Positions 21,353-50,766 of a stretch of 57,875 nt of DNA are shown piece by piece. Numbering within the stretch: the first letter of the stretch is position 1; each line of letters begins with the position of its first letter. The DNA comes from an archaeon (GTDB taxonomy: Archaea; B1Sed10-29; JAJSAI01): contig JAJSAI010000014.1 in assembly GCA_024274695.1 (NCBI GenBank), positions 1 through 57,875 on the forward strand. Reading direction: 5' to 3'. The notes under the pieces are model-generated. The model had not been told where the DNA came from and made no database searches. It worked only from the letters and a program-made list of their open reading frames with translations. A program made the translations under genes and the position numbers.

Positions 21353-21361
21353 ATTCTTATC

Positions 21362-27369: not shown

Positions 27370-27749
27370 CTTAGCAACGCCCTCCTCCTGCTCGCCGCTG
27401 ACTTGGCCGTGTCAGGAGGCAGGTCCCCTCCTCCTGCGCTGGCCATCGGTCCCGCGATAGACAGGTCGTACAATACCATGGTGAACCCAAAGGCTATGGC
27501 GAAGTACACTATCATCAGGGGTCCGAACAAGTGCCAGTACTGGAAGAGCATCAGGTACCCTAGTATGAGCACTAACGCGGTGATTATCGGGCCTCCTTCG
27601 AACCTGCTCCTGACGAAGGAGATCACGAACAAGAGCACGATTATCTTGAACCCGAACCACATCAAGTCCCAGTCGCTCTTCACTCCGGCCAGTGTCAAGA
27701 ACCTGTCCAGTATCCCCAGTACAGCCAGGACCGTCACGTTACTGATCAT
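27366..27749 (-). CDS. Polytopic (about 4 TM) small membrane protein, hypothetical
   Basis: 127 aa with an Arg-rich C-terminus (AASRRRALLR). Confidence 0.55.
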   Translation of the reverse strand: MISNVTVLAVLGILDRFLTLAGVKSDWDLMWFGFKIIVLLFVISFVRSRFEGGPIITALVLILGYLMLFQYWHLFGPLMIVYFAIAFGFTMVLYDLSIAGPMASAGGGDLPPDTAKSAASRRRALLR

Positions 27750-28766: not shown

Positions 28767-31700
28767 TAGTCTTCACTCTCTGACTGAGCGCTTACATACT
28801 CCTGGTAATGCTCGTAGTCAGCATTAGGCCCTTTTGTCACGCACCAACCCTCTTTAGTTGCAAGACCCCCTTCACAGTACAAGCATGAGCCTTTAGAGTT
28901 TTGCGCCAGGCATGTCCAGCTACAATAGCCGTTTGCCTTGTTCACGCACAGGGCTTCATCTGGACACTTAAGAGTTACTTTCTCAGTATCGCACAGCTTC
29001 CAGTTGGATAACCCGTGGCAGATGACCTTGTATCCGCAGTTTTCTCCAGATCCCGATTCTGAAGGGCCCTTCTTTTCCGCACCAGTCACAGTATAATAAC
29101 TACCCCATGGAGATATTGTGTAGGTTATGGTCCCCCCTGAATCTTCAGAACCCATGATCACGTTTACTCTCAGGTTTCCGAGGCCAATGGGTAGAGATAT
29201 AGTGGTACCATCTGAGGGGAAGGAGCCTCCCTTGATCTTTAGGTGAATGTACGGAACAAACCCTTTCGGGCTGAACTTTAGAGTTTCGGTGGAGGACCAG
29301 ATTGTTTTGGTTTCTACACCTACTGTGATCTCAGTGCCCTCTGCTTGCAAGGGAATAATATCTATCTCATCTGCGAACACGTTGAGTGGAACATAACAAT
29401 CTAGTGCAATATGCTTTTTATCCTCGCCAGTGTATCTCATGTTACCGCAAAAGGCAGCGCACTTTCCGTAGAATACTCTTTTATCATTCTCTCCAGCAGG
29501 ACTGGGAGCATCTTTTACTACAAGGTTCTTGTTGGAGATCTTGATCAGTTTTCTTCCTGCAGTCATACCATTTATTGTGTCAAGGGTGTTCTGTTGAATG
29601 CCTTTCATTGTGGTAGGGGTGGATGGGATCTCGCATGCTTGGATTCCAGGGGCTGATGAGAGATACAGTGCTATCGTCTTATGTTCGCTGGTCGTGGTAT
29701 AGTACAAAACTTTCGCAAGCGTCTTATAGTCTCCTTCCTTGAATTCCATTATCACCTTCCCGAGGTCGTTGTCCGCAACGGTGGTTATGCTGTTGTCCTG
29801 GCCGCTGCCGAGCCGTTCGCTCAGCAGGCTGGATATCTTACTTTCCTTGCCTTGGGGTATTGACAGGTACACGTGGTTTGCTGTCTCCCAGTATACCGCA
29901 GTGTCTTCTGGCAGGGTCCAGCCAGCCTTCTCGCTGACAGCGGCCTTGAAGTTCAGTATCTCCGAGTACTCTCCAACCTGTTCTGGGGTGAAGTCTGACG
30001 GTCTCCCGATAATAATGTACGGCCAGGAGACTTCCTCAGGAGAGCTCCTGTAGACTACTCTCACCTGGTCTTCTCCGACTTCTTCCCCTTCCTCCACAAC
30101 ATCCTTGCCGGTTTTCTCGTGGATTATGTTCCTTATCTGGGCCTTCTCGTCTTCTGACAGGCTTGTTCCCAGCAAGTTGAGCACTTCGTAGTCTGTTCTG
30201 GAGGTTATCCACTTCCCGTCACGTATTTCCAGAACCTCATTTCCTTTGGAGAAGCGGATTATGTTATCAATGAACTCTTTCACGCTGTCCAGCGTTGGCC
30301 CGACAATATGCAGGTAGTTGTTCTTGTCAAGGTACGCGAGCCCTGCCGCCGGGAACCTGTTCTCGAGCTCGGGCACGTTCTCCCAGAGGTCCTGGCACGC
30401 CTGCTGTGTTTCGTCGAAGCATGTTTCTATTATCAGGTTGTGAGTGTACTCCTCGTCTCCCAGGACGCTCCTGGAGTAGGATACGCTGTAGCCTTCTTTT
30501 TCTCCAACGCCCCACAGAGCGTTCATGAGCTTGTGGACCTCTTCCTCTATTGACTTCCCTGTCGTTATCACCACCCGGGTCTGGTATACGGACGGCCGCT
30601 TCTCCGCAATGCTGCTGGCGTCCGCAGGTATGAACGCGAGGAAGTTCTCAAGCTTTTCCTTCGGATTCATGTCCGAGAGTTTTCCTGTCTCGTAGTACCT
30701 TAGTTTTTTAGTGGTCCCTTCCGCGGTCTGGTAGTTCGTGGTCTTCACGGTCCCGTATCCTATCTCAGGCCAGAAGTCTGTGAACACTTCGTCGTCTAAT
30801 CCTAATGTGTTCACCGCGATGTACATTTCGTCTTTGTTGAGTTTGTAGTACACGCTCCTGAACGCCTGGTTCGGTGTTTTGGCTCCCGTGAGTATCTGGG
30901 CGAGGGTCGCGAAAGCGTCAGGGTCAAAAGTTTCCCCTTTCTTCAGGGTCTTTGAGAAGTCTGCTGAGATAACTTCAACTCCTCCCGCGGGGGCTGCTGC
31001 TTCTTCTTGTACTGTGGCCTTGTACTCTATGGGGACTTTCTTGGTGATCCCGTTCTTTTCTGCAGTGAACTCTCCTTTCACGTCAATGTTCGTGTTTGTT
31101 GACGGGAACGGCGCGTACAATGTTATGCTCGCGCTGAACGTTATCTGGGACTCGTCTGACTCTACCTTTACGTTCTCCGCGCTGCATCTCCACGCTCCGG
31201 ACGCGAGGCAGTCCGCGGTTCCCTCGTCAGAGGACACTTCCGCTTTGAGCACGCTGGCTCCTGACACGCTCACGCCATCGCACCTGTTGTTGAGGATGAT
31301 GCTGACGTCGTTCTTTTGGCTTATTATCAGGGTATTGTCTTCAGAGTCCAGCCGGTCTGGGTAGCAGGCTTTGATCTTCATTGGCACGGTCACTGGCTTG
31401 TCAAAGTAGGGTTGTCCCGCGATCCTCTCGTCAGACTCTATAATCATTTGAGCGTTCTGGTCCTGGTCTAAGAGTTCCTTCCAGGGGAAGTCCCTTCTTT
31501 CGTTAGATAGCAGGCACAGCCCCAGGTCCAGTTTTATCCCGTTTTCCGAGTCTGTTATCCCTCCCTCCACGCTCTTGTCCAGGGTGCAGACGGTTTCTCC
31601 TGCCTGGGTGATTTCAATTCTCTTGATGTACTTGGATGTTAGGATTGTGTTCGTGTTGAGGTCCTTGAGCGGCACTGTCACTTCTGGAGTGAACTCGTCA

Positions 31701-34700
31701 ATGTCTATTTCTTCCGGCGACTGGACTTTCATGAACCCGCCTACTGGCGCGGACATGCTGGCGAGGGAGTGTTCTTCTGATCCTGTCGTTACTTTCAGCT
31801 CGTACCCCATCTTGCCGTAGAACGTGGCCTTGACAGGGATGCTGATGCTCGCCTGCTGGAACTTGTCTCCGGCTATCTCCAGAACAACGTCCTCCGGGCT
31901 ATTTCCTTGGGCTGGCTCGCAGGCGGTAGCCTCAGGAGACACTGAACAGGACGCTGCGCTTCTGCTGACCGCATTCTCTTCTCCAGAGTATTCCAGGGAG
32001 ATCTTGTCCGGCACGAGTGGGACATCTCCTTTTTTAATCAAGCTGATGTCCAGCGTGGCTTCTTCTCCTATCTTGAGCGCGCAGGCGCCCGGCTGGCTGG
32101 GGTTGCAGATGTTCCCGTCCTCGTCTGTCATGCTCGTGCTCCAGCACAAGGGCACTTCTTCTGAGCACTTGTAGTCCTTGGTCCACGGGGATATTGGCAC
32201 GGTGACATCCAGGCTCCTGCCGCCGACGCTCACGTTCAGGGTGTCTGTTTCGGGTATGAACCCGTAGAGTCCCAGGTTGATCACGAGACTGTCCCCGTAC
32301 GCGATTCCCTTGTAGTCTTTGACGGTAGCCTGGCGGTAGGTCCCCTGGCCGTTACTGTAGTCCGTCCCAAGAGTGTACTCAAGTTTTGCTCCGCGTTCTT
32401 CTCCTGAGTGGAGAACTGCTTTTGCAGAATCTCCTGCTCCCTTAACAAGCCTGAAGTAACCTTCCTGCGTGCTGATTCTCACTGTGTCCGAGAGTGTGTC
32501 CGTGCCGTAGTAGGATAGCACTATCTGGTATTTTCCTGTCCTGCCCTCTTCTAAGCGTATGTTGGCAGGTTCTTTTGCTTCCCACTCCATTTCAACAGCA
32601 GGTGCTTCAGAGTAAGTTATGTGGTCTGCGGTGTACTTTGTGCGCTCTGTGCACTTGTACGTTTTTTCGACCTCGCATCCCATGCTTTCAAGGTATTCTG
32701 GCAGGGAGTCGTAGCAGGAGAAAGCCAACATTACCTGTTTTCCTGGGCAAGAGAGAGAATAGTAGTGCCCCTCTTTTGTTGTTTTTGTCAGGGACTTTGG
32801 CTTGTTGAGTACTATCGTCTGCCCTCCGTTCTTCTCCTGTGCCAGCTTCAGCGTCCCGTCACACTTTATCATGAGCGCGATTTTCCCTTTCTCGTCTGGC
32901 GTCACCTTCCCCACGTCATTGAAAGAAAGAACCCCGTCTTCTGCGGTCAGCGTTTTCTGTTCTCTGAATTCAAGGGTTATCCGAGCTTCTTTCGTTATTT
33001 CCAGCGTGTCATCCTTCCATTCCACTTTTTTGTCCTGGTAGGAGTAAGAGTACCATTTTTTGACCGTGCCTATTCTCACTGTCGCTTTTCCAGCACAGCT
33101 CCCGCTTATTTCAAGCTTATTCAGGCTGAAGCTGGTCTTGGATGGGGAGTCTGTCACTATCACCACAGGGTTTGATAAGGTGTTCTTGTACTCTTTCTCC
33201 ACGGGGCTTCCTGTTCCGGAAGTCTTGTATTCTCCTGAGCCCTTCAGCCTATACACTTCCAGGCACACCTTCTGGTCTTCCGAGCAGGTTTCTGGCCTGG
33301 GTGCTTTCTCAACGTTCAGGTAGACCCTGTCTATGATGTTCTCTCCGTTGCCCAGGGTTATTGAGAGTTTTCCCTTGCCGTTGTAGTACCCTTTCCCGAC
33401 GGCGACTGCTACCACGTCCCCGGAGTATATTATGTGGTAGTTCCACTTCTGCTTGTTCTCTGTGTACGCGACAACGTTGTCGTTTCCTGTGGCGGTGTCA
33501 ACGTCAAAGTGCGTGCCGCTGCTGGACTCCTCTTTTATTGTTATTGTCTTACCCTCCAGTTCAGTGTCTGCTCCGGGCATTTGTTTGACCAGGTATGTCA
33601 GGGTGAATGGCTTCATGAACCCGACGTCGGGGATCTTTTTCCAGTAGTAGTCTTTCCCGTCTACTGTTATTGTAGCGTATTCCATTATTCCCGCGTTCTG
33701 GTTGCACACCATGGTTCCCTTTTCCCAGTCTTCTTCGGTGTACTCCTCTTCCGGCTTGCACTGGGTCTTGTCCGTGGTGATGATGACCTGCTTTTGGCTG
33801 TCGCCAGAGCCGGGCTTGACGTGGATGTACTGGTGGTACGCTCCCTTCTGGGCGGGGGTGAGCGCGTGGAGTTTCATGGTGATCGTCAGACTCTTGAAGG
33901 GCCTTAGCCCGTAGTCTGATTCAGTAGCGCCCGGGCAGTATCTTGAGATAATGTACTTGTTCCCTGTTCTCGTCACGGCGTGCGCGGTGGTTTCTCCTTC
34001 GCACTTGTACTTCACCTCGTTTACCCTGAGCAGGTTGCCTTCTCCTGAAACGCTCAGGCTGATGTCCTTGTTGTACGTTTCTGGTTTTTCGTTCACTACG
34101 GTCACGACAGCGGTCGCGTCCTCTCCTGGGGACAGTTGTACTGGGCTGGACAGTGGTCTGTTCTCAGAGTCGAACAGTGACCATATCACAGTGAGCCCTT
34201 CTCCTGGCAGGTACGTGCCCTCCCCGTTGTATGCTGTGATCTTAAATTCTTTTTCTCCTTCTCCCGGGTCTCTGACTGTCACCTGCGGCTTTTGCCATGA
34301 CCCGTGGTACCTGATGACGAGCTCCTTGCTCTCGCTTCCTTTCCAGTGCCTCACGTACACGGGGATCCTGACCTGTTTGACCGCGCTCTCCTGAGGCTGT
34401 GAATCAATTATCCTGATCTTGTTATCTCCAGCGTCGTACTCGTACTCTTGTTCTGCCTGGACAGAGATCATCTCGTCAGGAAGCTTTAGTTCTATGCTCG
34501 TGTTCTTGTACTCCTGCAGCAGCCCGTACGAGACCACAAGATAGTACCATTTTCCTGCGGTCAGTTTGTCCTGCGTTTCTCCGGAGGAGAACTCAAGGCC
34601 CATGACGTTCACTGATGCGTTGGGTCTTGTCAGGGTGATGTTGAGGGTCTTGTCAGTGTCCATTACCACTCCTGGGAGCATGGTGTAGTACGTTTCCTTT

Positions 34701-36466
34701 GTTTCAGGATCAACGTACTTTGCGTCCACGTCCACGACGGTGTCCTTTCTTATGAGCCCTTCAAAAAAGGCTACTCCTGCAGCGTTGGTCTCCTGTTCAG
34801 TCCGGTCGAGCCATTTTGATTCCACGGAGACCTTCGCTCCTTTCACCCTTTCTCCGGACGGGCTGGACACTACCACCATAATGTTTACTTTCTCTGACTC
34901 CATCCTGACCTGAAGGTACGCTTGCTTTCCTGCTTCTACGGTCACTGTGGTTTCGGAAGAGCATGGGGTCATGCTCTTTCCTTTGACTGCTTCCACGCAG
35001 TAGTCTCCTGGCTCCACCCACGGGAACACCGCGTGGCCGTAGGAGTCGGTCGTCTGGTCTGGAGCAGCCCATTCTTCTGGCTTGTTGTTCTCGAGCCTGT
35101 AGAGCTTTAGGTCCACTCCGTCAGCATAGGACCCGTCCTCGTAGAACACGTCCACCGCCAGGCTACCGTAGTCGTTGGGGTTCAGGCGTGTGAGCTCCAC
35201 AACGTTCTCTCCGCCCACTGTAACGTTAGCCTCTTTCACCTCGTACAAGTACTTGTAGAACATTGCGGTGTACTCTTCTCCTTTCTTCAGCCCCACCGTG
35301 CTCCTGCCGTTCGCGTTGGTCTCTGCTTCCAAGAACTTTACCCTGTTCCTGTCGAACACCTTGTAGTGCACGTTGGGCAGCGCGGCCACTTCGCCTGCTT
35401 TTTTGGTGATGAAAGTGGTGCTTTCAGCGTCTTCAAGGGTCACGTTCAGGGACAGGCTTCTAACGCTCTCGTTCAGCTCGTACGTTAGGTTGCTCTTGTA
35501 GTACAGGTAGTCCTCGCTCAGGACCCCTATCCTGAAAGGAGAGTACAGGGGGTAGTCCATGCACGCTGTCCCGTCCCTCGTGCGCGCGACCTTCTTGGTG
35601 CTCCCGCTGTGCGCGTCGTACAATTCCACTGAGACAGCGTATGGGACCACCTTCTGGTCAGGAGAGTAAACGGTAACGCACACGCTTCCCATTTCCTTCG
35701 GGGTCCTCTCCTGCTTCTCTAGTTTCAGGCATTCTGTGGACTGGCCTGCTCTCGTGAGATCCTCCCACGTGACGCCCTTAAGGTAGTACTCGTCCGCCCC
35801 GTATACTGCCCTGAAGGAGTACGTGTGGTCCTTCACGGCGGTGAGCGTGCACGAGGTCCCAGTGCATTCCCCTGTTTTTACCTTGTAACCGTACCCTGAG
35901 TACTCAGTGTAAGTGACGTTGGGGAGGAAAACCTTTCCTTCAGAGTCCTGGACGCAGAAGGTCACCTGCGATGCAGCGGGCTTGATGCCCTGACAGTTCA
36001 GCGTTATCGTGTAAGGTTGGGCCTGCTGCCCCTGCACGGTTATTTCTTCTTCCGCGTCCTCGCAGTTCTCTACTTCTGCAACTTTGACAGTGTACGTTCC
36101 AGGAAGAACGTTAAGAGAAAGCAGTCCGTCAGCGTCAGTGTACCCTCCGTCAACAGGATTGTCCTCTTGGTCGAATAACTGCACTTTCGCGTTGGGTATG
36201 CTGGCCCCCGTATTGCTCACGACGCTTATGGATATTGGCACGGGCTGGGGGCCTGCTCCTCCAAGGCCTCCTACTATTCCGGCAGTAAAGTATACTACCA
36301 GCATTAGCACGGCGGCAAAAACGGGCAGTGAAGGGATCCCGTGCTTTTCTATCGGGTCAACAAGCTTGTACACTGGGACTCCTTTTCCGTCCATCCAGTC
36401 AAGCAGGTCGAACCAGCGGTCTTCAACCGCGTAATAAGCATTGAGCAGGGTGTCTGCAAAACCCAT
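28766..36466 (-). CDS. Giant (2566 aa) N-terminally anchored surface protein with repeated beta-sandwich domains and a Cys-rich C-terminal module
   Basis: Uninterrupted 7.7-kb ORF. A cytoplasmic N-region of about 46 aa is followed by a TM helix (LPVFAAVLMLVVYFTAGIVGG). At least 5 CarboxypepD_reg/PEGA-like repeats follow (e.g. IPNAKVQLFDQEDNPVDGGYTDADGLLSLNVLPGTYTVKV). The last ~100 aa contain 12 Cys. Confidence 0.85.
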   Translation of the reverse strand: MGFADTLLNAYYAVEDRWFDLLDWMDGKGVPVYKLVDPIEKHGIPSLPVFAAVLMLVVYFTAGIVGGLGGAGPQPVPISISVVSNTGASIPNAKVQLFDQEDNPVDGGYTDADGLLSLNVLPGTYTVKVAEVENCEDAEEEITVQGQQAQPYTITLNCQGIKPAASQVTFCVQDSEGKVFLPNVTYTEYSGYGYKVKTGECTGTSCTLTAVKDHTYSFRAVYGADEYYLKGVTWEDLTRAGQSTECLKLEKQERTPKEMGSVCVTVYSPDQKVVPYAVSVELYDAHSGSTKKVARTRDGTACMDYPLYSPFRIGVLSEDYLYYKSNLTYELNESVRSLSLNVTLEDAESTTFITKKAGEVAALPNVHYKVFDRNRVKFLEAETNANGRSTVGLKKGEEYTAMFYKYLYEVKEANVTVGGENVVELTRLNPNDYGSLAVDVFYEDGSYADGVDLKLYRLENNKPEEWAAPDQTTDSYGHAVFPWVEPGDYCVEAVKGKSMTPCSSETTVTVEAGKQAYLQVRMESEKVNIMVVVSSPSGERVKGAKVSVESKWLDRTEQETNAAGVAFFEGLIRKDTVVDVDAKYVDPETKETYYTMLPGVVMDTDKTLNITLTRPNASVNVMGLEFSSGETQDKLTAGKWYYLVVSYGLLQEYKNTSIELKLPDEMISVQAEQEYEYDAGDNKIRIIDSQPQESAVKQVRIPVYVRHWKGSESKELVIRYHGSWQKPQVTVRDPGEGEKEFKITAYNGEGTYLPGEGLTVIWSLFDSENRPLSSPVQLSPGEDATAVVTVVNEKPETYNKDISLSVSGEGNLLRVNEVKYKCEGETTAHAVTRTGNKYIISRYCPGATESDYGLRPFKSLTITMKLHALTPAQKGAYHQYIHVKPGSGDSQKQVIITTDKTQCKPEEEYTEEDWEKGTMVCNQNAGIMEYATITVDGKDYYWKKIPDVGFMKPFTLTYLVKQMPGADTELEGKTITIKEESSSGTHFDVDTATGNDNVVAYTENKQKWNYHIIYSGDVVAVAVGKGYYNGKGKLSITLGNGENIIDRVYLNVEKAPRPETCSEDQKVCLEVYRLKGSGEYKTSGTGSPVEKEYKNTLSNPVVIVTDSPSKTSFSLNKLEISGSCAGKATVRIGTVKKWYSYSYQDKKVEWKDDTLEITKEARITLEFREQKTLTAEDGVLSFNDVGKVTPDEKGKIALMIKCDGTLKLAQEKNGGQTIVLNKPKSLTKTTKEGHYYSLSCPGKQVMLAFSCYDSLPEYLESMGCEVEKTYKCTERTKYTADHITYSEAPAVEMEWEAKEPANIRLEEGRTGKYQIVLSYYGTDTLSDTVRISTQEGYFRLVKGAGDSAKAVLHSGEERGAKLEYTLGTDYSNGQGTYRQATVKDYKGIAYGDSLVINLGLYGFIPETDTLNVSVGGRSLDVTVPISPWTKDYKCSEEVPLCWSTSMTDEDGNICNPSQPGACALKIGEEATLDISLIKKGDVPLVPDKISLEYSGEENAVSRSAASCSVSPEATACEPAQGNSPEDVVLEIAGDKFQQASISIPVKATFYGKMGYELKVTTGSEEHSLASMSAPVGGFMKVQSPEEIDIDEFTPEVTVPLKDLNTNTILTSKYIKRIEITQAGETVCTLDKSVEGGITDSENGIKLDLGLCLLSNERRDFPWKELLDQDQNAQMIIESDERIAGQPYFDKPVTVPMKIKACYPDRLDSEDNTLIISQKNDVSIILNNRCDGVSVSGASVLKAEVSSDEGTADCLASGAWRCSAENVKVESDESQITFSASITLYAPFPSTNTNIDVKGEFTAEKNGITKKVPIEYKATVQEEAAAPAGGVEVISADFSKTLKKGETFDPDAFATLAQILTGAKTPNQAFRSVYYKLNKDEMYIAVNTLGLDDEVFTDFWPEIGYGTVKTTNYQTAEGTTKKLRYYETGKLSDMNPKEKLENFLAFIPADASSIAEKRPSVYQTRVVITTGKSIEEEVHKLMNALWGVGEKEGYSVSYSRSVLGDEEYTHNLIIETCFDETQQACQDLWENVPELENRFPAAGLAYLDKNNYLHIVGPTLDSVKEFIDNIIRFSKGNEVLEIRDGKWITSRTDYEVLNLLGTSLSEDEKAQIRNIIHEKTGKDVVEEGEEVGEDQVRVVYRSSPEEVSWPYIIIGRPSDFTPEQVGEYSEILNFKAAVSEKAGWTLPEDTAVYWETANHVYLSIPQGKESKISSLLSERLGSGQDNSITTVADNDLGKVIMEFKEGDYKTLAKVLYYTTTSEHKTIALYLSSAPGIQACEIPSTPTTMKGIQQNTLDTINGMTAGRKLIKISNKNLVVKDAPSPAGENDKRVFYGKCAAFCGNMRYTGEDKKHIALDCYVPLNVFADEIDIIPLQAEGTEITVGVETKTIWSSTETLKFSPKGFVPYIHLKIKGGSFPSDGTTISLPIGLGNLRVNVIMGSEDSGGTITYTISPWGSYYTVTGAEKKGPSESGSGENCGYKVICHGLSNWKLCDTEKVTLKCPDEALCVNKANGYCSWTCLAQNSKGSCLYCEGGLATKEGWCVTKGPNADYEHYQEYVSAQSESED

Positions 36467-36500
36467 AAGATCACCGCTCTAAAGGAAATAAAGGGGGAAG

Positions 36501-36513
36501 AATATTTATATTA
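36501..36513 (-). promoter_or_regulatory. TATA-like AATATAAATATT upstream of the giant gene
   Basis: About 40 nt upstream of the ATG at 36466, with the SD-like GGTGATC 3 nt before the ATG. It overlaps the stop of the archaeosortase-like gene. Confidence 0.35.
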
Positions 36514-37050
36514 CTTTCCTAACCCTTTCCACGCTTTCGCAAGCCCCCGGAACACTCTTCCTCCCAGCACGTACCATGCGTAGTAGTATCCTGCGATCGT
36601 GCCCAGCAAGGTGGCCCTGAAGAACAGGTCGTGAACAAGGTCCGCTGTTCCTAGCCCGTGGGAAAAGGCAGACCATAACACGATCCAGATCCTGACAGGA
36701 TTTACGACCGCCACCAGCAGTAGCCCCAGCAGCACTCCCGCGAGCCTGTTCCTCCTGCTCCTGTCAGGGGTCGCGAGCACCGCGGCGACCACTACCGCGA
36801 TCTCCACGTTACCCGCGCACAAGTCGTTCACTTCTGCTCTCAGCCCGCCAGCGGTCACCACGGGATCTTCTCCTGAGAGGACGCACGAGCTAGGCACTCC
36901 GACACTGTTGAGTAGGCTGCTGGCAGCGCACGCTGAGAAGGCTTTTAAAGGGTAAAGGCCTGTTATTCCCAGAAACGCCCACACGGCTGCCGCGATGGCA
37001 AGCACTCTCGCCGTGAAAACGGCAGCGTCCCGGAGCTCTCGCGATCGCAT
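36511..37050 (-). CDS. Minimal exosortase/archaeosortase-family protein (ArtE-like size, 179 aa)
   Basis: About 5 TM helices. Family-type motifs: DLC(78)AGN, then VVN(117)PVR(120)IWIV 42 residues later, then DLVH(140)DLFF. C-to-R spacing and context match the conserved Cys/Arg core of the family. Confidence 0.65.
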   Translation of the reverse strand: MRSRELRDAAVFTARVLAIAAAVWAFLGITGLYPLKAFSACAASSLLNSVGVPSSCVLSGEDPVVTAGGLRAEVNDLCAGNVEIAVVVAAVLATPDRSRRNRLAGVLLGLLLVAVVNPVRIWIVLWSAFSHGLGTADLVHDLFFRATLLGTIAGYYYAWYVLGGRVFRGLAKAWKGLGK

Positions 37051-37083
37051 GACAAGAGAAAGGGGTCTTGGAGGTTAAAAAGA

Positions 37084-39363
37084 GTGGTGGAGTACACCAT
37101 CAGGACAGAAGGAGGGAAAAGATACCTTGTAATAAACTACAAGGGCAGGCCAATAGGCCCTAGTGTCGTGGACTACCCCCAGTGCATGAAAGAAGTGATA
37201 GAACTTCTTGAGAAGACTGACGCGGATTACGTGGTCCTGTCAGACGTTTACGAGATAACCTATGATGAAGAACAGACCAAGATGCTCAAGGAAATTGCTG
37301 ACGTTGCGAAACTCTTTTTCAAGCAGGGGGTCTGGAACCCCAGCAAGCTCGTTAACAACAAGGCCTGCGAGGACATGATCCCGAGCAGGTACAACACGGT
37401 CCTCTCAATAGCCCAGGGACTCCTGAAGCAGGACCCGATAAAAGCGTACGTGACTCTGATTAACGTGATAAAAAGAGAAGAGTCTTCCCTTGAGACCCTG
37501 CGGTCTCCCAGGAGGGAGTGCACCGAACACTACCTCAGAACCTTGTACGCCATGAGGGACGAGCTTGAGAAAACGACACTGATCAAAAAGTTTGTTGAGC
37601 TCGCGAGCAAGACAGGAATAAAAAAGATAACAAGAGAGGTCTACCGGCCGTTTTTTGAGGCCCAGATAAAGCCTGCTTTTGTTTCCAGTAGGGTCTTCTT
37701 CTACACTCCTCCTGAGGTCGTGCTGGTTGACCAGTACCAGGTGGCTGATGCGACCGTTAGTATTTACCAGCATCCTGAGAGGATAAACCTGTTGTACTAC
37801 CTGAACCCTCCTGAGTACTCCCTCACGCCCGAAAAGTACTTCCTGCTGTCCAAGACAAGAGAGATAGTCTCCACGTATCATCCGAAGGGAATAAGGTTCA
37901 TGAGCCCGAGGGAGGTCAAGGAATACTTCACCAGCGTGTACGAGACCACCATCCGGGACCTGGCGGACAGGCACAAGATCACGATAACGCCCGAGGAAAT
38001 AGAACAGCTTGCAAGGATCGTCACCAGGTACACTGTGGGGTACGGCATGATGGAGCTCCTGCTGTCCGACAGGAAGCTGACGGACGTGTACATGGACGCT
38101 CCCCTCGGCACGAAACCAGTTTACGTGGTGCACGGGGAGTACGGCACGTGCGAGACAAACGTGCTGTTCACAGAAGAAGAGGCCAAGGGAATAATTTCAA
38201 GGTTCAGGGCACAGTCAGGAAGGCCTTTTGACGAGGCCCACCCCGTGCTGGACTATGACATTCCTGACCTACAGACAAGGGTCGCGGTGATAGGCCCTCC
38301 GCTGTCCCCTGACGGGGTGGCGTTCGCCCTCAGGCTCCACAAGCTAACCCCCTGGACCCTCCCCCAGTTCATTGACGTGAAAATGCTTAACGCGGACACC
38401 GCAGGGCTATTGTCCTTTCTTATAGAAGCCCAGGCGAGCACGCTCGTGAACGGGTCAAGGGGCTCTGGTAAGACCAGCCTGCTGATGAGCCTCATGCTCG
38501 AGCTCCTGCCCTCCCTGAGGATAATCGTGCAAGAAGACACTCTAGAGATCCCTGTCCCTTACATGAAAAGGATAGGGTATAACATACAGCGGCTGAAAAC
38601 ACAGTCCGCGATAGCCGTGAGCAGGACCAGTGCTGAAGTGCCTCCTGAGGAAGCCCTGAGGACCGCGCTCAGGCTGGGGGACTCCGTGCTCGTGATAGGA
38701 GAGGTCAGGTCGAACGAGGCGAAGGTCTTGTACGAGGCAATGAGGGTGGGGGCCATCGGGAACGTGGTCATGGGAACCATCCACGGAGAAAACGCTTACT
38801 CTGTCTGGGACAGGATCGTGAACGACCTCGGGGTCCCTAACACGAGCTTCAAGGCCACTGACGTGATAGTCACGGCCGCGCCCATCCGGTTCGGAGGCTC
38901 TCTGAAGAGGCACAGGAGAGTGATAGAAATAACAGAGGTCAAGAAGCACTGGTACGAGGACCCTGAAAAAGAAGGCGGCCTGCTCACGCTCCTGAAGTTC
39001 GACGCCAAGAGGGACACACAGTATTACGTGAAAGAAGCTTTCGAGGAATCAGAGCTGTTGAAGAGAATAGAGGAAAGGTGGGGTGTTGACCGGGAGTTCC
39101 TGATGAACGAGATAAGGGCAAGGGCCCAGGCGAAACAGTTCCTCGTGGACCAGAAAAGAAAGCACAACATCCCTGACCTGCTAGAGGGAGAGTACACCGT
39201 GCCGGCCAACAACATGTACAGGATAATACAAGAGAGGCAGAGGACAGAGCTCGGCAGCGTGGACCACAAGAAACTCCTGCAAGAATGGAAGAAGTGGGTG
39301 CTCGAGGCCCAGGTCAAGCCTCTCATAAGGGTGAGCAAGAGTGCCGAGAAAAAGAAGGCATAA
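37084..39363 (+). CDS. Type IV pilus/archaellum-family assembly ATPase (FlaI/PilB/VirB11 superfamily), 759 aa
   Basis: Walker A NGSRGSGKTSLL, IIVQEDTLEI, VLVIGEVRSNEAKVLYEAMRVGAIGNVVMGTIHGENA (Asp and His boxes). It has a long N-terminal extension. GTG start with GGAGG 9 nt upstream. Confidence 0.85.
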   Translation: MVEYTIRTEGGKRYLVINYKGRPIGPSVVDYPQCMKEVIELLEKTDADYVVLSDVYEITYDEEQTKMLKEIADVAKLFFKQGVWNPSKLVNNKACEDMIPSRYNTVLSIAQGLLKQDPIKAYVTLINVIKREESSLETLRSPRRECTEHYLRTLYAMRDELEKTTLIKKFVELASKTGIKKITREVYRPFFEAQIKPAFVSSRVFFYTPPEVVLVDQYQVADATVSIYQHPERINLLYYLNPPEYSLTPEKYFLLSKTREIVSTYHPKGIRFMSPREVKEYFTSVYETTIRDLADRHKITITPEEIEQLARIVTRYTVGYGMMELLLSDRKLTDVYMDAPLGTKPVYVVHGEYGTCETNVLFTEEEAKGIISRFRAQSGRPFDEAHPVLDYDIPDLQTRVAVIGPPLSPDGVAFALRLHKLTPWTLPQFIDVKMLNADTAGLLSFLIEAQASTLVNGSRGSGKTSLLMSLMLELLPSLRIIVQEDTLEIPVPYMKRIGYNIQRLKTQSAIAVSRTSAEVPPEEALRTALRLGDSVLVIGEVRSNEAKVLYEAMRVGAIGNVVMGTIHGENAYSVWDRIVNDLGVPNTSFKATDVIVTAAPIRFGGSLKRHRRVIEITEVKKHWYEDPEKEGGLLTLLKFDAKRDTQYYVKEAFEESELLKRIEERWGVDREFLMNEIRARAQAKQFLVDQKRKHNIPDLLEGEYTVPANNMYRIIQERQRTELGSVDHKKLLQEWKKWVLEAQVKPLIRVSKSAEKKKA

Positions 39364-41413
39364 GAAAAAAGAGAGGATAGTCTCGCCAAAACAGTACGCT
39401 GAAGCCTACGGGAGCCTGCTCCAGGGGGGACAGGAGAAAAGGACTACTGGAATCAAAGAACCCCTGTACGTGCGGTTCGCCAGATTCGCTGGAAGGATTA
39501 TCAGAGCACCTAACAAGTTCCAGAAAATAGAGTACCAGGCGGCCCTGGACTTCTTGGGGTGGGACCTGGAGCCAAGGGACGTGAACGCTGCAGGCTCTCT
39601 AGCCCTCGTCCTGTCCCTGCTGGCAGTAGTCCCCGCGGCAGGCATTCTCTTGTACATGACCTTCGTAACCTACGAGCTTTCGTACACAATGCTCTTCTAC
39701 ACGCTCGGTCCGCTGGTGCTCGTCCCGTTCCTGGTCAGCTTCTACGTTCAGAACTACATTCTCTTCGCGGCCAAGAAGGAAAGGATGCTGGCAACATCCA
39801 GCATTTCCGACGTGGTCAACTACCTCACCATGAGCATGAAGCTCTCTCCCAACCTGGAGAGGGCGATATCCTTCGCGGCAGAGCACGCCACGGGAAAGAT
39901 CGCAGAAGAGCTCAAACAGCTTGACTGGGAGATCAGGACAGGAGTGCACGCGAGCGCTGAAGAGGCTCTGGACAAGCTCGCGTACAAGTGGGGAGCGTAC
40001 TCCGACGAGTTCAAGCACGCGCTAATGCTGATCAGGTCAAGCACGATAGAAGTGGACGAGGCCAAGAGGAGCCTGATCCTGGACAAGGCTGTCTCGGACA
40101 CCCTGGAAGGAATAAAAGAGAACATGAACGCGTACGCAGGAGAAATGAGGCAGCCCAGCATATACTTGTACTACATGGGAGTCCTTCTTCCCCTCCTGCT
40201 CATAATCCTTCTTCCGATAGGGAGCATAATGGCCAGGCTCCCGTTCTCTAGAACCCCTTTCATAATACTCTTCTACAACATCCTTGTCCCACTCGCCGTC
40301 TTCGTGTTCGCAAGGAACATAATAGGCAAAAGGCCTCCTGTCTACACTGCTCCCGAGATCCCGGACGACTTTCCCGGCCTACCTAAAAAGGGCAGGATAA
40401 GAATAGGGAAGTCAGAGGTTCCGGCAGTGCTCCTGGGGCTGGTGGCAGCCCTCGCGATCATAGGACTGTTCTCGCTCTTCCTGGACCCCGTGCTCAACCC
40501 GTACCCTCCTGAGTGGAACGTTCAAGCGCGGGAGAACTGGTACCCCCTGTTCAGCCTGACGGGGGTGTTCCTGGGAGGGGCTGTGTTCTCAAGCATTGTC
40601 CTGTACTCCCTCTCGCACGCCAAGCGTAAAGCCCAGAAGGAAATAATGGGCATGGAGAACGAGTTCCAGGACTCTGTCTACCTGCTCGCGAGCAGGCTGG
40701 GGGAGAACAGGCCCGTGGAAGAAGCGGTGGAGTATACCGCCAGTTTTCTGGGAGACACTCCCCTGGGCAGGTTCTACCAGAGGACCGCGGACAACATACG
40801 CAACTTGGGAATGACCCTGGACGCCGCGTTCTTTGACCCAGTCTACGGTTCGCTGAAAACCGTTCCGAGCAGGCTCATCCGAGGAGCTGTCAGGGTCATG
40901 GTTGACGCCATGAGCCTCGGAGTACAGCAGGCTGCAAGGGCCCTCATCTCCTTGTCCCTGCAGATCAGGGACTCCCAGAAGGTCAGGGAAAGGATAGTAG
41001 GGATACTGAAGGAAATCACGGGCATGATGCGGTCAATAGTCCTGTTCATAGGCCCCATAGTTCTGGGAATAACCACCTCCCTGCAGGGGATCGTGGTCAG
41101 CACGCTCAAGAGAGTGAGCGAGACAGGGCTCGCGGGAGGAACAGCTTCAATTCCGGGAGTCAACCTGCCCATGGTCTCCTTCGGCAGCCCAGAAGCCCTC
41201 GCGGGAACTCCTGGCCCGATGCTTTTCATGATAATAATGGCTGTTTTCATGGTAGAACTAACAGTCCTGCTGGTGTACTTCATAACAAGGGTGGAGGAAG
41301 GGGAGAACAATACAGTGCTCTACCACGAGCTCGCCAAGACCCTGCCGATAGCCCTCGCCCTGTTCTTCCTTTCGGCCTGGTTCTCCCAGTCTCTCACAGG
41401 GGCAGTGATCTGA
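39341..41413 (+). CDS. Polytopic pilus platform protein (FlaJ/TadC/GspF-like, two T2SSF-type helical domains)
   Basis: 690 aa. Two cytoplasmic helical domains (LERAISFAAEHATGKIAEELKQLDWEIRTG... and VEEAVEYTASFLGDTPLGRFYQRTADNIRNLG...) are separated by TM clusters. 23-nt overlap with the ATPase gene. Confidence 0.8.
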   Translation: MPRKRRHKKKERIVSPKQYAEAYGSLLQGGQEKRTTGIKEPLYVRFARFAGRIIRAPNKFQKIEYQAALDFLGWDLEPRDVNAAGSLALVLSLLAVVPAAGILLYMTFVTYELSYTMLFYTLGPLVLVPFLVSFYVQNYILFAAKKERMLATSSISDVVNYLTMSMKLSPNLERAISFAAEHATGKIAEELKQLDWEIRTGVHASAEEALDKLAYKWGAYSDEFKHALMLIRSSTIEVDEAKRSLILDKAVSDTLEGIKENMNAYAGEMRQPSIYLYYMGVLLPLLLIILLPIGSIMARLPFSRTPFIILFYNILVPLAVFVFARNIIGKRPPVYTAPEIPDDFPGLPKKGRIRIGKSEVPAVLLGLVAALAIIGLFSLFLDPVLNPYPPEWNVQARENWYPLFSLTGVFLGGAVFSSIVLYSLSHAKRKAQKEIMGMENEFQDSVYLLASRLGENRPVEEAVEYTASFLGDTPLGRFYQRTADNIRNLGMTLDAAFFDPVYGSLKTVPSRLIRGAVRVMVDAMSLGVQQAARALISLSLQIRDSQKVRERIVGILKEITGMMRSIVLFIGPIVLGITTSLQGIVVSTLKRVSETGLAGGTASIPGVNLPMVSFGSPEALAGTPGPMLFMIIMAVFMVELTVLLVYFITRVEEGENNTVLYHELAKTLPIALALFFLSAWFSQSLTGAVI

Positions 41414-41414: not shown

Positions 41415-41813
41415 ATGCTGGGCAGGGGGCAAGAGTTCGCGGTAATGAAGCTCGTGCTCGCGGTAGCGTTCGCCGCGGCACTCCTGGTCATAGTCACATT
41501 GTATGCTGGAAGCATACAGCCCTCTCCCAGCGCGGCAGAAGACATCCAGGGCCTCCTGTCACAGGCCATGAGCGCGAGAGGCCAGTGCTTCCACAGGACG
41601 GTCACGTACCTTCCCAGCGAAAGGTATCCCTCCAGCGCTTTCACTCCCAGCACGGTGGAGTTCAAGATCAGCGCCAGGTACTCCCAAATTTTTACTGGAG
41701 GGAATGCTCTGGAAGTGAAAGATTACAGGGTGACCGTGGAAACAAGCGCGTCATGCGACACGGCAGGCCAGTGCACTGTCTGCGTGGGAGAGCCCGACTG
41801 CTCCTGCCCGTAA
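41415..41813 (+). CDS. Pilin-like protein (class III signal, Gln at +1)
   Basis: MLGRG|QEFAVMKLVLAVAFAAALLVIVTLY. The start lies 1 nt after the platform gene's stop. Confidence 0.7.
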   Translation: MLGRGQEFAVMKLVLAVAFAAALLVIVTLYAGSIQPSPSAAEDIQGLLSQAMSARGQCFHRTVTYLPSERYPSSAFTPSTVEFKISARYSQIFTGGNALEVKDYRVTVETSASCDTAGQCTVCVGEPDCSCP

Positions 41814-41829
41814 CACCGGGACAGAAACC

Positions 41830-41837
41830 TTTTAAAA
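41830..41837 (+). promoter_or_regulatory. Internal TATA box TTTTAAAA ahead of pilin gene 41869
   Basis: About 35 nt upstream of the start, in the only sizeable gap of the pilin cluster. Confidence 0.35.
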
Positions 41838-41868
41838 CCACACGCGCCTTTCTCTCTTCGGGTGATGC

Positions 41869-42291
41869 GTGATGAGGAAAGGACAGGCTTTCAGCACATT
41901 CCAGCTCATGATCGCGGCCGTGGTCGCGATAGCCATTCTCGGAATACTCCTCGCCATAATAGGAGGGATCTCCCCCCAGGTCTCCAGCCCCAAGCACGCG
42001 ATAGAAAACGCGCTCAGGGAAGCGTACTCTTCCCCTAAGATAGTGAAGTCATCCCCTCAGAAGGTCAGGTTCACTGAGGGGGATAGGTATCCTGGGACCG
42101 CGTTCTCAGAAGTGGTGGGAGGGTCCACTGTACTGTTCAAGTGCGGGAGTATAACAGGTTGTAGTGTGGAAGACAATGGTGAGACCCTTGCAGTCACATC
42201 CACCTTCGACGCCAAGATCTTCGCCACGTGTGATGGTGGAGAGTGCTGTGTTGGGGTCGGAACAGCAATAACGAGCGTGAGCGACTGCTAG
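41869..42291 (+). CDS. Pilin-like protein (class III signal, Gln at +1)
   Basis: MMRKG|QAFSTFQLMIAAVVAIAILGILLAII, 140 aa, with its own TATA-like box. Confidence 0.75.
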   Translation: MMRKGQAFSTFQLMIAAVVAIAILGILLAIIGGISPQVSSPKHAIENALREAYSSPKIVKSSPQKVRFTEGDRYPGTAFSEVVGGSTVLFKCGSITGCSVEDNGETLAVTSTFDAKIFATCDGGECCVGVGTAITSVSDC

Positions 42292-42323
42292 GTCAGCGAG
42301 GCCAGCTCGTGAGATGATCTCGG

Positions 42324-42467
42324 ATGCGCAGGGGGCAGAACTGGACTCCGATTTACCTGGTGATAATAATAGCCATAGCAGTCATCCTGCTGTTCACTAT
42401 AGTAAAGCCGATGTTCACGCAGGCGGGACAGTACGTGCAGTCCACCCTGCCCTCCGTCTTGTTCTGA
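42324..42467 (+). CDS. Mini-pilin, 47 aa (not in the supplied ORF track)
   Basis: Hand translation: MRRG|QNWTPIYLVIIIAIAVILLFTIVKPMFTQAGQYVQSTLPSVLF, stop TGA at 42465-42467. It has the same basic-G-Q plus hydrophobic helix signature as its neighbours. Confidence 0.55.
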   Translation: MRRGQNWTPIYLVIIIAIAVILLFTIVKPMFTQAGQYVQSTLPSVLF

Positions 42468-42481
42468 TCCTCTGAAAAACC

Positions 42482-42490
42482 CTTTTATAC
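42482..42490 (+). promoter_or_regulatory. TATA box CTTTTATAC about 26 nt upstream of pilin ATG 42512 (leaderless)
   Basis: The spacing is the same as at other leaderless genes in this window. Confidence 0.4.
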
Positions 42491-42511
42491 TCTCCCGGCT
42501 TTTTTCTTAGC

Positions 42512-43126
42512 ATGAGCAGGAAGGGCCAGGAGGCCGCGCCAATAGAACTCATGATAGGCGTTACCGTGCTCGCGTTCGTGCTCGTGATCGCGTACTACGT
42601 TTACTCTAACGCCGCGGCCTCTCAGTGCGTGGAAAAAATAAGGGCAAGCTCTGCCCAGCTCGCGAGAACAATAGAGGAGGTGGCCCAACAGGGCCCGGGG
42701 ACAACCAGGTACGTTACAGTCGGGTTCTCGTGCCAGAGTCAGAACGTTAAGGTTTCATACATAACGATAGCGGAAGGGCCTGACCAGACGTGCCAGAGAA
42801 TGGCCGGCGCGAGCAGGTGCTACATGCTCTACGTTATAGGAGACGAGTCAGGCCAGCTTACCGTCATACACTCGGAGCTGTTGAGGAACGTTGGAGAAAG
42901 CGTGGGGATAAAGTACAAGGTAGGGGGCGAGGAGACAAAAATGAAGTGCGATTACAACAGCTTGGTCGCCTACCTGAAGGACGGTAGCGGGTGCGACGCC
43001 GGCGCCTTCATCAAGGCAGGAGAGTACTCGTTCAGGATAACCAAACAAAAGGGAGGACCGGGGGACGAGAAAGAATACTACGTGGTCATAGAAAACCTTC
43101 TCGCTCCTGAGGAGGGAACCTCATGA
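42512..43126 (+). CDS. Pilin-like protein (class III signal, Gln at +1), 204 aa
   Basis: MSRKG|QEAAPIELMIGVTVLAFVLVIAYYVY, with a Cys-containing globular domain. Confidence 0.75.
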   Translation: MSRKGQEAAPIELMIGVTVLAFVLVIAYYVYSNAAASQCVEKIRASSAQLARTIEEVAQQGPGTTRYVTVGFSCQSQNVKVSYITIAEGPDQTCQRMAGASRCYMLYVIGDESGQLTVIHSELLRNVGESVGIKYKVGGEETKMKCDYNSLVAYLKDGSGCDAGAFIKAGEYSFRITKQKGGPGDEKEYYVVIENLLAPEEGTS

Positions 43127-43662
43127 GCCGCGGGCTGGCAATGTGGACCATGTCAAAAATAGTCATGCTGATATTCCTGTTCACGGTCATGGGGTCAATG
43201 CTGTACTACCAGGAGTGGATGAGGCAGACGAGCAGGATAAACCAGGCGCAGTCCGTGGCCATGGAAATAAGAGAAGGGTTCAACAGGATACTGCTCCCGG
43301 AGTCACTGGAATCCAGGGCAGCGGTTCCCATACCGTACAGGATAGCGGGACAAGAGTACTACTTTATGATAAGCACGGCTACCACGAGCTCGGGCCAGAA
43401 GATATTGTATATTGTCCTGGCCTACGGGTCTCATGATAATGGTTTCTTCGGCCCCTGGGATGCTGCGGCATCGCTCATAGTATCCCCTGAGACAGAATTC
43501 TCTAACGGCGAGACAGGAAAGTCCTTGGAAGACTCTCCTGTGCAGGGCAGTTCTTTAACCTACAGGTTCATAATGATTGACAAGGTAATAGACCCTGCTG
43601 GGCACGCTGCTGTCACGGTGCAAGCGTGCGAGAGACTGGACGTTAACGGTGAATGCGCTTGA
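43123..43662 (+). CDS. Pilus-associated N-terminally anchored protein (atypical class III-like signal)
   Basis: MSRG|LAMWTMSKIVMLIFLFTVMGSMLYY. ATGA overlap with the preceding pilin gene. Confidence 0.6.
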   Translation: MSRGLAMWTMSKIVMLIFLFTVMGSMLYYQEWMRQTSRINQAQSVAMEIREGFNRILLPESLESRAAVPIPYRIAGQEYYFMISTATTSSGQKILYIVLAYGSHDNGFFGPWDAAASLIVSPETEFSNGETGKSLEDSPVQGSSLTYRFIMIDKVIDPAGHAAVTVQACERLDVNGECA

Positions 43663-44081
43663 TCGGGAAGGGGTTCATCGGTCCGGTGGGAGACGACATC
43701 CCAACGATCTTGATTATTGTAATGGCTATCACTCTTTTCTTCGCGGGATTTGGCTACGCTCTTCAACTGTACTCTGAAAAGAACGAGAGGCTCATGATGC
43801 TCAAGGCCTCGCTTGACATAAGCAGGGCTCTCCTGAGGTCTACGGTACTGCCAGAGAACCCCATGGATCCCAAGTACTCCGGGCACAAGCAGGCGAGCCT
43901 GCTGGCGCAGTCGTACGGGGTGAAGTTCAGCGCGGTTTACAAGGAGGAAAACTTTGACCCTGCTGCCGACTGCCACGTCCCGCCAGGCCGGGACGTGACC
44001 GTGATGTCCTTCCTGACCGCCAGGAAGGATGCTGACGGGAACATAGTACTGGACACTCTCAGGGTGTGCGTGTGGAAGTGA
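43653..44081 (+). CDS. Pilus-associated N-terminally anchored protein
   Basis: MRLIGKG|FIGPVGDDIPTILIIVMAITLFFAGFGYAL. 10-nt overlap with the upstream gene. Confidence 0.6.
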   Translation: MRLIGKGFIGPVGDDIPTILIIVMAITLFFAGFGYALQLYSEKNERLMMLKASLDISRALLRSTVLPENPMDPKYSGHKQASLLAQSYGVKFSAVYKEENFDPAADCHVPPGRDVTVMSFLTARKDADGNIVLDTLRVCVWK

Positions 44082-44088
44082 TCACAGG

Positions 44089-44598
44089 ATGAGGAAGGGC
44101 CAGTCCGGAGTGATGGACGCCATGATGTTCATGATAATCACTTCAGGAGCGGTCGGCATGCTCCTGTTCGTTTCAGGACTGTACGCTGAGAGCACTAACC
44201 AGCAGGTCCTCTCCTCGTACTCCTACGAGTACGCTGGCAATGCGCTCGTGGCCCTGCACTACGCGCGGGATGATAAGGGAGACTGGTTCTGGAGAAAGCT
44301 TGCGGAGAAATACGACTCAGAGCATCCTGACGAGCTTGAAGAGTATCTTGAGGGAGACGCTGGGAATGTTGTGGAAAAAGTCAGGCTGTCTTCCCCTTCT
44401 CCGCAGACGTACCTGTGCGTGCTTGACAGTTCTGTCAATCCCCTGAAGGCAATGTGCTACAGCATGACCCCTGATGATGTCGGAGTGCTTCAGACAGACT
44501 ACGATAACCCTAACCCCTGCGGTCCCGGCATGCAGTCCTATTCTTACGCTGTTCCCCTGGACGGGGTCAAGTCAGTCTCAGTAATACTATGCTACTAG
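44089..44598 (+). CDS. Pilin-like protein (class III signal, Gln at +1), 169 aa
   Basis: MRKG|QSGVMDAMMFMIITSGAVGMLLFVSGLY. Last gene of the plus-strand operon. Its 3' end overlaps the convergent giant gene by 4 nt. Confidence 0.75.
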   Translation: MRKGQSGVMDAMMFMIITSGAVGMLLFVSGLYAESTNQQVLSSYSYEYAGNALVALHYARDDKGDWFWRKLAEKYDSEHPDELEEYLEGDAGNVVEKVRLSSPSPQTYLCVLDSSVNPLKAMCYSMTPDDVGVLQTDYDNPNPCGPGMQSYSYAVPLDGVKSVSVILCY

Positions 44599-50718: not shown

Positions 50719-50766
50719 ACGAGAACCAAAAGGTTTTTAGTGTTTAAAAAAGTATCGTGTTACCGG

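Follow-up and report, generated by a model that had tools for sequence, protein, structure and literature searches.

Introduction

The presumed catalytic triad of the exosortase/archaeosortase family is Cys/Arg/His (Haft 2023 preprint). In Haloferax, the activity of ArtA needs Cys173, Arg214 and Arg253, with a Cys-to-Arg spacing of 41, and its active site is annotated as extracellular (PMC9263693). Most characterised systems of the family consist of one enzyme and many targets. Natural transformation of Methanococcus maripaludis, a pilus-dependent process, requires the archaeosortase ArtE, whose role in it is unexplained (PMC10133366), and a 2016 census of archaeal pilus loci described no sortase inside a type IV pilus cluster. 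Here we analyse a stretch of 57,875 nucleotides from an archaeon (GenBank assembly GCA_024274695.1, contig JAJSAI010000014.1), hereafter called the window, in which a small gene encodes a protein of 179 amino acids (aa), the mini-sortase or simply the sortase. The sortase gene recurs as a fixed member of a cluster of type IV pilus-like genes. Attachment to host cells is the way of life of Micrarchaeota and other DPANN archaea, in which pili and giant surface proteins are prime suspects for the contact. Our literature search found no description of sortases in pilus loci of Micrarchaeota or other DPANN archaea, and the only earlier hint of a link between small archaeosortases and pili is the need for ArtE in the transformation of M. 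maripaludis.

The sortase gene and its family

36511..37050, minus strand, sortase gene (mini-archaeosortase, 179 aa, ATG to TAA)

The first-pass annotation had placed here an exosortase/archaeosortase-family enzyme carrying Cys78 (NDLCAGN), Asn117-Pro-Val-Arg120 (VVNPVRIWIV) and His140 (DLVHDLFF). Counting of residues confirmed the open reading frame (ORF) and all these positions, on the minus strand; the plus-strand frame over 36511-37050 contains many stops. Family membership was borne out by the NCBIfam signature TIGR04178 (exo_archaeo), with a score of 34.9 bits (E=1.4e-8) where the curated cutoff is 23. The Pfam hidden Markov model (HMM) PF09721 gave 25.2 bits (E=1.3e-5), marginally below its gathering score of 25.7; PF09721 matches are on record for the close homologs P0002-P0005. 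A word-indexed search with the sortase returned four relatives only, with identities of 51-79%, and an exhaustive HMM search of 1.84 billion cluster representatives gave 308 relatives at E<=1e-3, 166 of them at E<=1e-10; among the 150 matches listed, nearly all were 100-250 aa long. For the analysis of residue conservation, 122 relatives that were 22-77% identical to the query were aligned. All 122 matched TIGR04178 and no named subfamily was predominant among them. Two relatives carry the Joint Genome Institute name "exosortase/archaeosortase family protein". The 179-aa protein is thus almost certainly a member of the exosortase/archaeosortase family.

The scores obtained with the named models were far below their cutoffs (XrtX, 30 bits against 170; XrtM, 30.4 against 125; XrtH, 22.2 against 86; ArtD, TIGR04175, 21.1 against 125; pacearchaeosortase, NF033505, 16.1 against 80), and the ArtA (TIGR04125) and ArtE (TIGR04124) models had no match to the sortase at E<=10. 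The ArtE model was matched weakly by 29 of the 122 relatives. The kinship with ArtE-type enzymes that the first-pass annotation implied was therefore rejected, because the ArtE model did not match and all named subfamily cutoffs were far off. Its emphasis on a minimal size did not hold either, since many named subfamily models span only 150-190 positions, as illustrated by those of XrtM (150), ArtD (150), XrtS (155), XrtH (158), pacearchaeosortase (167) and XrtX (168). The sole match among 185,579 species genomes was a metagenome-assembled genome of Candidatus Micrarchaeota, with 68% identity to the sortase. By these comparisons the sortase is placed as a lineage-specific small archaeosortase of Micrarchaeota (DPANN) outside every named subfamily. 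It is a candidate new subfamily, probably with its own dedicated signal.

Conserved residues and predicted topology

Cys78, Glu83, Asn117, Arg120, His140 and Phe144 are invariant in all 122 aligned relatives. The same six residues and Arg145 are invariant in 19 syntenic loci, and Arg145, which is nearly invariant across the 122 relatives, is a possible counterpart of ArtA Arg253. The equivalents of Cys78 and Arg120 had been expected to be conserved among homologs if the assignment was right, and they are, as is His140. The Arg stands 42 residues past the Cys, as had been claimed, compared with 41 in ArtA. The invariance of the Cys/Arg/His set and of Glu83, Asn117 and Phe144 at identities as low as 22% argues for retained catalysis.

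An AlphaFold2 model built on the 122-row alignment had a predicted local distance difference test (pLDDT) value of 96.3 and a predicted template modelling score of 0.87. The modelled elements are helices at 2-30 and 33-49, a beta-hairpin at 55-73, and helices at 81-92, 99-131 and 133-178. Hydropathy indicated four membrane segments, and Lys and Arg residues are clustered in the N-terminus, in the loop 93-102 and in the C-tail. Because of this distribution, the sortase is predicted to have both termini inside and four transmembrane (TM) helices, with Cys78, Arg120 and His140 at the outer leaflet and the active site extracytoplasmic. The earlier estimate of about five TM helices has accordingly to be revised, as hydropathy and the positive-inside rule give four TM helices, one interfacial helix and a small beta-hairpin. 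Neither a sequence search of the PDB nor a Foldseek search of the PDB with the pLDDT-96 model returned an exosortase-like structure (best Foldseek E=0.46).

The pilus-like cluster

The genes surrounding the sortase in the window are the following:

37051..37083, no strand, intergenic spacer between the sortase start and the ATPase start (33 bp, divergent; read from the sequence)
37084..39363, plus strand, type IV pilus/archaellum-type secretion ATPase (759 aa; Pfam T2SSE 66.6 bits)
39341..41413, plus strand, TadC/FlaJ-like platform protein (690 aa, polytopic; weak T2SSF match, 20.5 bits against a cutoff of 25.2)
41415..44598, plus strand, six small pilin-like genes (class III N-termini, [KR]G/hydrophobic, in the translations)
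28766..36466, minus strand, giant protein (2566 aa), directly downstream of the sortase
27798..28766, minus strand, pilin-like protein (322 aa, class III signal KRNRG/FSLFTPLVGT)
27366..27749, minus strand, polytopic membrane protein (127 aa), which ends the gene block on the sortase side

The ATPase has a long N-terminal extension and partial matches to NCBIfam models of the FlaI/TadA type. A Pfam scan of the six small pilin-like proteins gave no match. The intergenic spacer contains a TATA-like element (TTTTTAA) some 30 nt ahead of the sortase ATG.

Related loci were gathered via either a close sortase set or an alignment of four ATPase orthologs (36 metagenomic loci). In about 15 lineages the sortase lies back-to-back with the pilus ATPase or a few kb from it, with sortase identities down to 23-38%, and the head-to-head arrangement of both genes is kept down to approximately 33-38% sortase identity in about a dozen lineages. 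Divergent abutment of the two genes was seen in loci that had been found via the sortase (L001, L005, L006 and L007), and the P0006, P0007 and P0012 contigs, at about 33-35% identity, have the head-to-head sortase/ATPase pair together with TadC-like, pilin-like and giant genes. When a sortase HMM was applied to the loci, the gene was found in every one that had upstream DNA and an ATPase at least about 56% identical, mostly abutting the ATPase; the ATPase orthologs that adjoin a sortase in other loci are 56-87% identical. At four more distant ATPases (L022, L024, L025 and L033) this HMM found no sortase alongside. The sortase is present in 18 of the 19 loci in which the whole pilin block is visible, and its identity to the query across these loci ranges from 63% down to 23%.

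The other members of the cluster are also recurrent. A TadC-like gene follows the ATPase in 27 loci, orthologs of the pilin-like genes occur in about 19-24 loci, the 322-aa pilin-like protein, a neighbour of the sortase and the giant protein, in 26, and the 127-aa membrane protein in 12. Even in the distant locus L046, the sortase is followed by a protein whose class III N-terminus (RGFIAAPLLGT) is similar. The conserved cluster in which the sortase stands thus comprises the ATPase, the TadC-like platform, six pilin-like genes, the extra pilin-like protein and the giant surface protein. In the closer clade it adds a secreted protein of about 1,200-1,600 aa.

The first-pass annotation had put the sortase at the head of an operon with the giant protein. 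The two genes are indeed co-directional, with the sortase 44 bp upstream of the 2566-aa gene, but the spacer between the sortase stop and the giant start (36467-36510) holds the box TATAAATA, which immediately follows the stop, and, 3 nt ahead of the giant-gene ATG, the ribosome-binding site GGTGAT. Since the giant gene may therefore have its own promoter, it may be transcribed independently of the sortase.

Candidate sorting signal

44595..49400, minus strand, secreted protein (1601 aa, Sec signal peptide), candidate substrate
44598..44699, minus strand, candidate tripartite sorting signal (residues 1568-1601 of the 1601-aa protein)

According to published criteria for tripartite signals, these are C-terminal and have at least three nearly invariant motif residues, a TM helix, a basic cluster and a signal peptide on the same protein (criteria 1 and 3-6; Haft 2023). 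Further criteria (2, 7 and 8) are that several unrelated proteins of a genome share the tag or, for dedicated systems, that enzyme and target are regularly co-located (Haft 2023). The 1601-aa protein ends in FLALPSIPPG, the TM helix TAGLVFVALIVVSLAMA and the basic tail REYARRRED. With jackhmmer, 15 orthologs were found in the related loci; all 16 loci with this family also hold the sortase, within about 8-12 kb (7.5 kb in the window), and Sec-type N-termini are found across the family. Fourteen aligned orthologous C-termini give the consensus [IL][LI]-A-x-L-P-x-x-P-[DENS]-G followed by a TM helix and an R/K cluster, the motif being preceded by a variable Pro/Thr-rich linker. The A, L, P and P of the motif are kept in 13 of the 14, L-S replacing L-P in L029, and the helix and the R/K tail are present in all of them. 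The tail of the family therefore has the features of criteria 1 and 3-6. As for the remaining ones, we found a single tagged protein in each locus, and the tag was not shared by any unrelated protein in the window and the related slices. In the 57.9-kb window and about 40 related slices, the 1601-aa family is the only one in which a conserved motif precedes a TM helix and a basic tail at the C-terminus.

None of the NCBIfam CTERM models tested against seven orthologous tails (PGF, PEF, VPXXXP, PIP, PEP, Loki, Heimdall, MYXO, LPXTG and others) was usable; the lone marginal match, to LPXTG_anchor (16.1 against 15.9), covered the helix and the basic tail only, and all other models scored below cutoff. 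When the aligned 1601-aa family was used to search for further proteins, nothing but the query was retrieved. We propose the tail as a candidate new sorting signal ("LPxxP-CTERM") outside the NCBIfam models. The first-pass annotation had stressed that candidate substrates adjoin the sortase and that such a context is what is needed to assign a signal. The context does permit a signal to be proposed, but its carrier is the 1601-aa protein 7.5 kb away and not the adjoining giant protein. The latter and ten complete orthologs of it have a single N-terminal TM helix and a C-terminus with neither helix nor basic tail, and the giant protein was rejected as a canonical C-terminal substrate because it lacks a C-terminal helix, a basic tail and a sorting signal.

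In one lineage, represented by two loci, the tagged proteins, of about 1,400 aa, deviate from this scheme. The genes are located as follows:

L006, sortase 10001-10594, partner 1-2276
L029, sortase 9323-10000, partner 17811-22097

These tagged proteins have an acidic spacer of about 40 aa between the L-P-S-T-P motif and the TM helix and a second element, [IL]-P-x-[NG]-K, right at the helix. The corresponding sortases have an insertion of 9-11 aa in the extracellular hairpin ahead of the Cys. As the pairing of insertion and spacer represents a single evolutionary event, it is only suggestive.

The 1601-aa protein gave no confident domain match, though a weak one to MACPF_D3 (E=0.0037). Internally it is weakly hydrophobic at residues 642-660 and 966-984, and its last 500 or so residues, which include Cys, are strongly conserved. 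A single-sequence structure model of its C-terminal 560 aa was unusable (pLDDT 38). A membrane-active role in host contact is conceivable.

Proposed mechanism and alternative explanations

Taken as a whole, we regard it as fairly probable that this is a lineage-specific mini-sortase which forms part of the pilus module and is dedicated to the cleavage of the 1601-aa protein. For the narrower claim, that the 1601-aa protein is a substrate of the mini-sortase, we see an even balance. After export by Sec, the C-terminal helix of the 1601-aa protein would keep it in the membrane. The sortase would recognise A-x-L-P-x-x-P-[DE]-G abutting the helix on the outside and would cleave at the motif via a Cys78 acyl-enzyme, and the protein could then be passed to a lipid or another acceptor, by analogy with Haloferax ArtA. 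In this way a helix-anchored precursor would become a mature surface protein working with the pilus, and the pair would constitute a "dedicated" system of one enzyme and one target.

Several observations weigh against this proposal. The co-occurrence counts are biased, every locus having been collected through the sortase or the ATPase. The tag is known from one protein family, so that its conservation could partly reflect orthology and not recognition by the sortase. In L006 and L029 the motif is not in contact with the helix, which is atypical for targets of deeply embedded sortases. Finally, in the distant loci L026 and L034, where sortase, pilus genes and giant protein are all kept, the 1601-aa protein has no ortholog within 10 kb; sortase and giant protein co-occur in 28 loci, these two included, and, since L026 and L034 have no tagged protein nearby, it is the giant protein to which the sortase is most tightly coupled.

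A first alternative is that the enzyme is a general surface-protein sortase with targets scattered in the genome, as ArtA, and that its position beside the pilus genes reflects co-regulation or history. We consider this rather improbable. It would agree with the one-enzyme/many-targets arrangement of most characterised systems and with the retention of the sortase in L026 and L034, where the tagged protein is not nearby. It would also suit L045, in which unrelated genes occupy the few kb between a distant relative and the ATPase, and a second paralog lies beside a cytidine diphosphate (CDP)-archaeol synthase. It is difficult to reconcile, however, with the head-to-head sortase/ATPase pair being maintained in about a dozen lineages down to identities near 33-38%, and with the tag being found on one protein only in the window and about 40 related slices. 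Moreover, in genomes as small as those of DPANN archaea, synteny conserved to this degree is usually the mark of a functional module.

Two related possibilities concern the giant protein. At its N-terminus this protein has a conserved 45-aa domain with G-I-P-S-L-P-V-F at its end; then come one TM helix, immunoglobulin-like (CarboxypepD_reg) domains and a Cys-rich C-terminus. The consensus of the N-terminal domain, of about 45 aa, is YYxxEDxWFxLLDW...[IV]PxYKxxDPxExxG, then an invariant G-I-P-x-x-P and the TM helix, and its positions are:

Window, 36341-36466, minus strand, giant N-terminal domain
L001, 10573-, giant N-terminal domain
L011, -8537, giant N-terminal domain
L026, -7552, giant N-terminal domain
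L034, -6225, giant N-terminal domain

The G-I-P-x-x-P resembles the L-P-x-x-P of the C-terminal tag. The N-terminal domain might represent a class III (prepilin) leader, conserved and of unusual length, in which case the giant protein would be a modular pilin.

The giant protein might thus be the real client, the G-I-P-x-x-P before its N-terminal TM helix being recognised and the N-terminal anchor processed or released; alternatively, both the giant and the 1601-aa proteins might be clients through an [IL]-P-x-x-P-TM element. We hold either version to be unlikely. In their favour, the giant protein and the sortase form the tightest pair, as co-directional neighbours in the 28 loci mentioned above, and L025, the one full-flank pilus locus without a sortase, also lacks the giant protein; in addition, the motif beside the TM helix is invariant in all lineages and similar to that of the tag. 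But the giant protein has no basic cluster past the helix and no C-terminal signal. Four K/R precede the helix and the 25 residues that directly follow it contain none, which suggests an N-in/C-out orientation with the motif in the cytoplasm, opposite to the predicted location of Cys78, Arg120 and His140. Furthermore, G/IP after K/R/H also suits a prepilin-peptidase (class III) site, as in the pilin-like genes of the cluster, so that conservation of the motif can be explained without a sortase. To our knowledge, no exosortase-family enzyme acts on an N-terminal anchor. On account of the predicted cytoplasmic position of the motif and its fit to prepilin peptidase, the giant protein as a substrate is left as a minor rival.

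It is more doubtful still that the sortase is a working part of the pilus-like machine of DPANN archaea and transfers one or both of these large proteins (the 1601-aa and the giant one) covalently, through the shared [IL]-P-x-x-P-TM element, to a lipid or a pilin-like subunit at the base of the pilus. If it were true, such a hand-over would be a convergent archaeal counterpart of the Gram-positive pilus sortases, and it would also explain why the small ArtE is needed in pilus-dependent DNA uptake by Methanococcus. Lastly, a non-catalytic pilus membrane subunit derived from a sortase, or a spurious ORF, is very improbable given the strict invariance of Cys/Arg/His, Glu83, Asn117 and Phe144, whose loss was not observed in syntenic orthologs, and given the hundreds of homologs and the pLDDT-96 model, which speak against a spurious ORF.

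Other genes and observations

Two more genes stand upstream of the 1601-aa gene and overlap it:

49397..50718, minus strand, gene pair on the upstream side of the 1601-aa gene, with overlap (a 288-aa secreted protein and a 163-aa polytopic membrane protein)

The 288-aa protein, whose C-terminus has a plain TM helix and the tail RRRRK but no LPxxP motif, was rejected as a tagged substrate because its positional counterparts in L005 and L023 have no common motif. For both genes, similarity in the related loci was below detection with jackhmmer, and the counterparts in L005 and L023 are positional. The remaining genes of the window are ordinary archaeal housekeeping genes, including PolB, Nre, TYW2 and phosphoenolpyruvate synthase.

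A second type IV pilus-like pair is located on the minus strand of the window, at 53905-57105. Its members are a T2SSF platform protein (53905-54849) and a T2SSE ATPase of 559 aa (55426-57105), the latter with a 4Fe-4S ferredoxin domain at the N-terminus. A pilus ATPase fused to a ferredoxin is unusual. The pilus ATPases of distant lineages are about 1,260 aa long, against about 760 aa here (L033, 1114-4890; L034, 9974-13795; L045, 2206-5979), and the extra length in L045 has Pfam matches to intein and LAGLIDADG. L045 (GCA_037444945.1) also has two mini-sortase paralogs 3 kb apart (10001-10573 and 13626-14697), one of which directly adjoins the CDP-archaeol synthase (CarS); this recalls the PssA/PssD of ArtA-dependent lipid anchoring. 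In several lineages, including the sortase-less L025, the pilus cluster is flanked by a protein with a double CxxC zinc-ribbon C-terminus (C-P-x-C-G...C-x-x-C...C-P-x-C):

Window, 50740-51348, plus strand, zinc-ribbon protein
L005, 19036-19977, zinc-ribbon protein
L025, 6457-7908, zinc-ribbon protein
L026, 18605-19438, zinc-ribbon protein
L034, 20975-21457, zinc-ribbon protein

Significance of the locus

The value of this locus is in the conserved module of sortase, type IV pilus and giant protein in Micrarchaeota, and in the candidate signal, not in the small size of the enzyme. A sortase in a pilus cluster together with a tagged surface protein of 1,600 aa gives a concrete, testable maturation step, and the module provides independent genomic support for the link between small archaeosortases and type IV pili. 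For annotation, the gain is a candidate sortase subfamily and a candidate model for a C-terminal sorting signal.

Comparison with known systems

ArtA of Haloferax volcanii, which acts on PGF-CTERM proteins, shares with the mini-sortase the family signature, a polytopic structure, an outward active site and a Cys-Arg distance of 41-42. Its targets are exported by Sec and have a tripartite end of motif, TM helix and basic C-terminus, as is predicted for the candidate 1601-aa target. Otherwise the two systems differ: TIGR04125 has no match to the mini-sortase, the candidate tail has A-x-L-P-x-x-P instead of the PGF motif (the PGF-CTERM model gave no match to the candidate tails), and ArtA has many targets, including the S-layer protein, and is encoded outside a pilus locus. 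ArtA also has about 300 aa, compared with the 179 aa of the mini-sortase. ArtE (TIGR04124) is similar in being small, in having no established sorting signal and in its link to type IV pili, but it belongs to Methanococcales and not to a DPANN lineage, and its model does not match the mini-sortase.

Similar in length are the pacearchaeosortase (NF033505), XrtX (NF046081), XrtM (TIGR04300) and ArtD (TIGR04175) subfamilies, with 150-170 positions, a conserved core and a clade-restricted distribution, although the mini-sortase is far below their cutoffs and their CTERM models do not fit the tail. In the JDVT-CTERM/myxosortase MrtJ system, too, each locus has a single tagged protein, regularly encoded close to the enzyme presumed to process it, which Haft accepts as a criterion instead of many targets per genome; its enzyme family, however, is unrelated, and in our case enzyme and target are 7-10 kb apart, with the pilus genes between them. 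Functionally, the mini-sortase most resembles the lineage-specific "dedicated" sorting systems catalogued by Haft. The class C pilus sortases of Gram-positive bacteria offer a further parallel, as Cys/His/Arg transpeptidases encoded in a pilus cluster with large adhesin-like proteins; the candidate signal of the 1601-aa protein recalls theirs in its L-P-x-x-P/G-like motif, TM helix and basic tail. Nevertheless, their fold is unrelated and their pili are polymerised by the sortase, whereas those considered here are of type IV, so that the parallel is an analogy only and no covalent assembly is indicated here.

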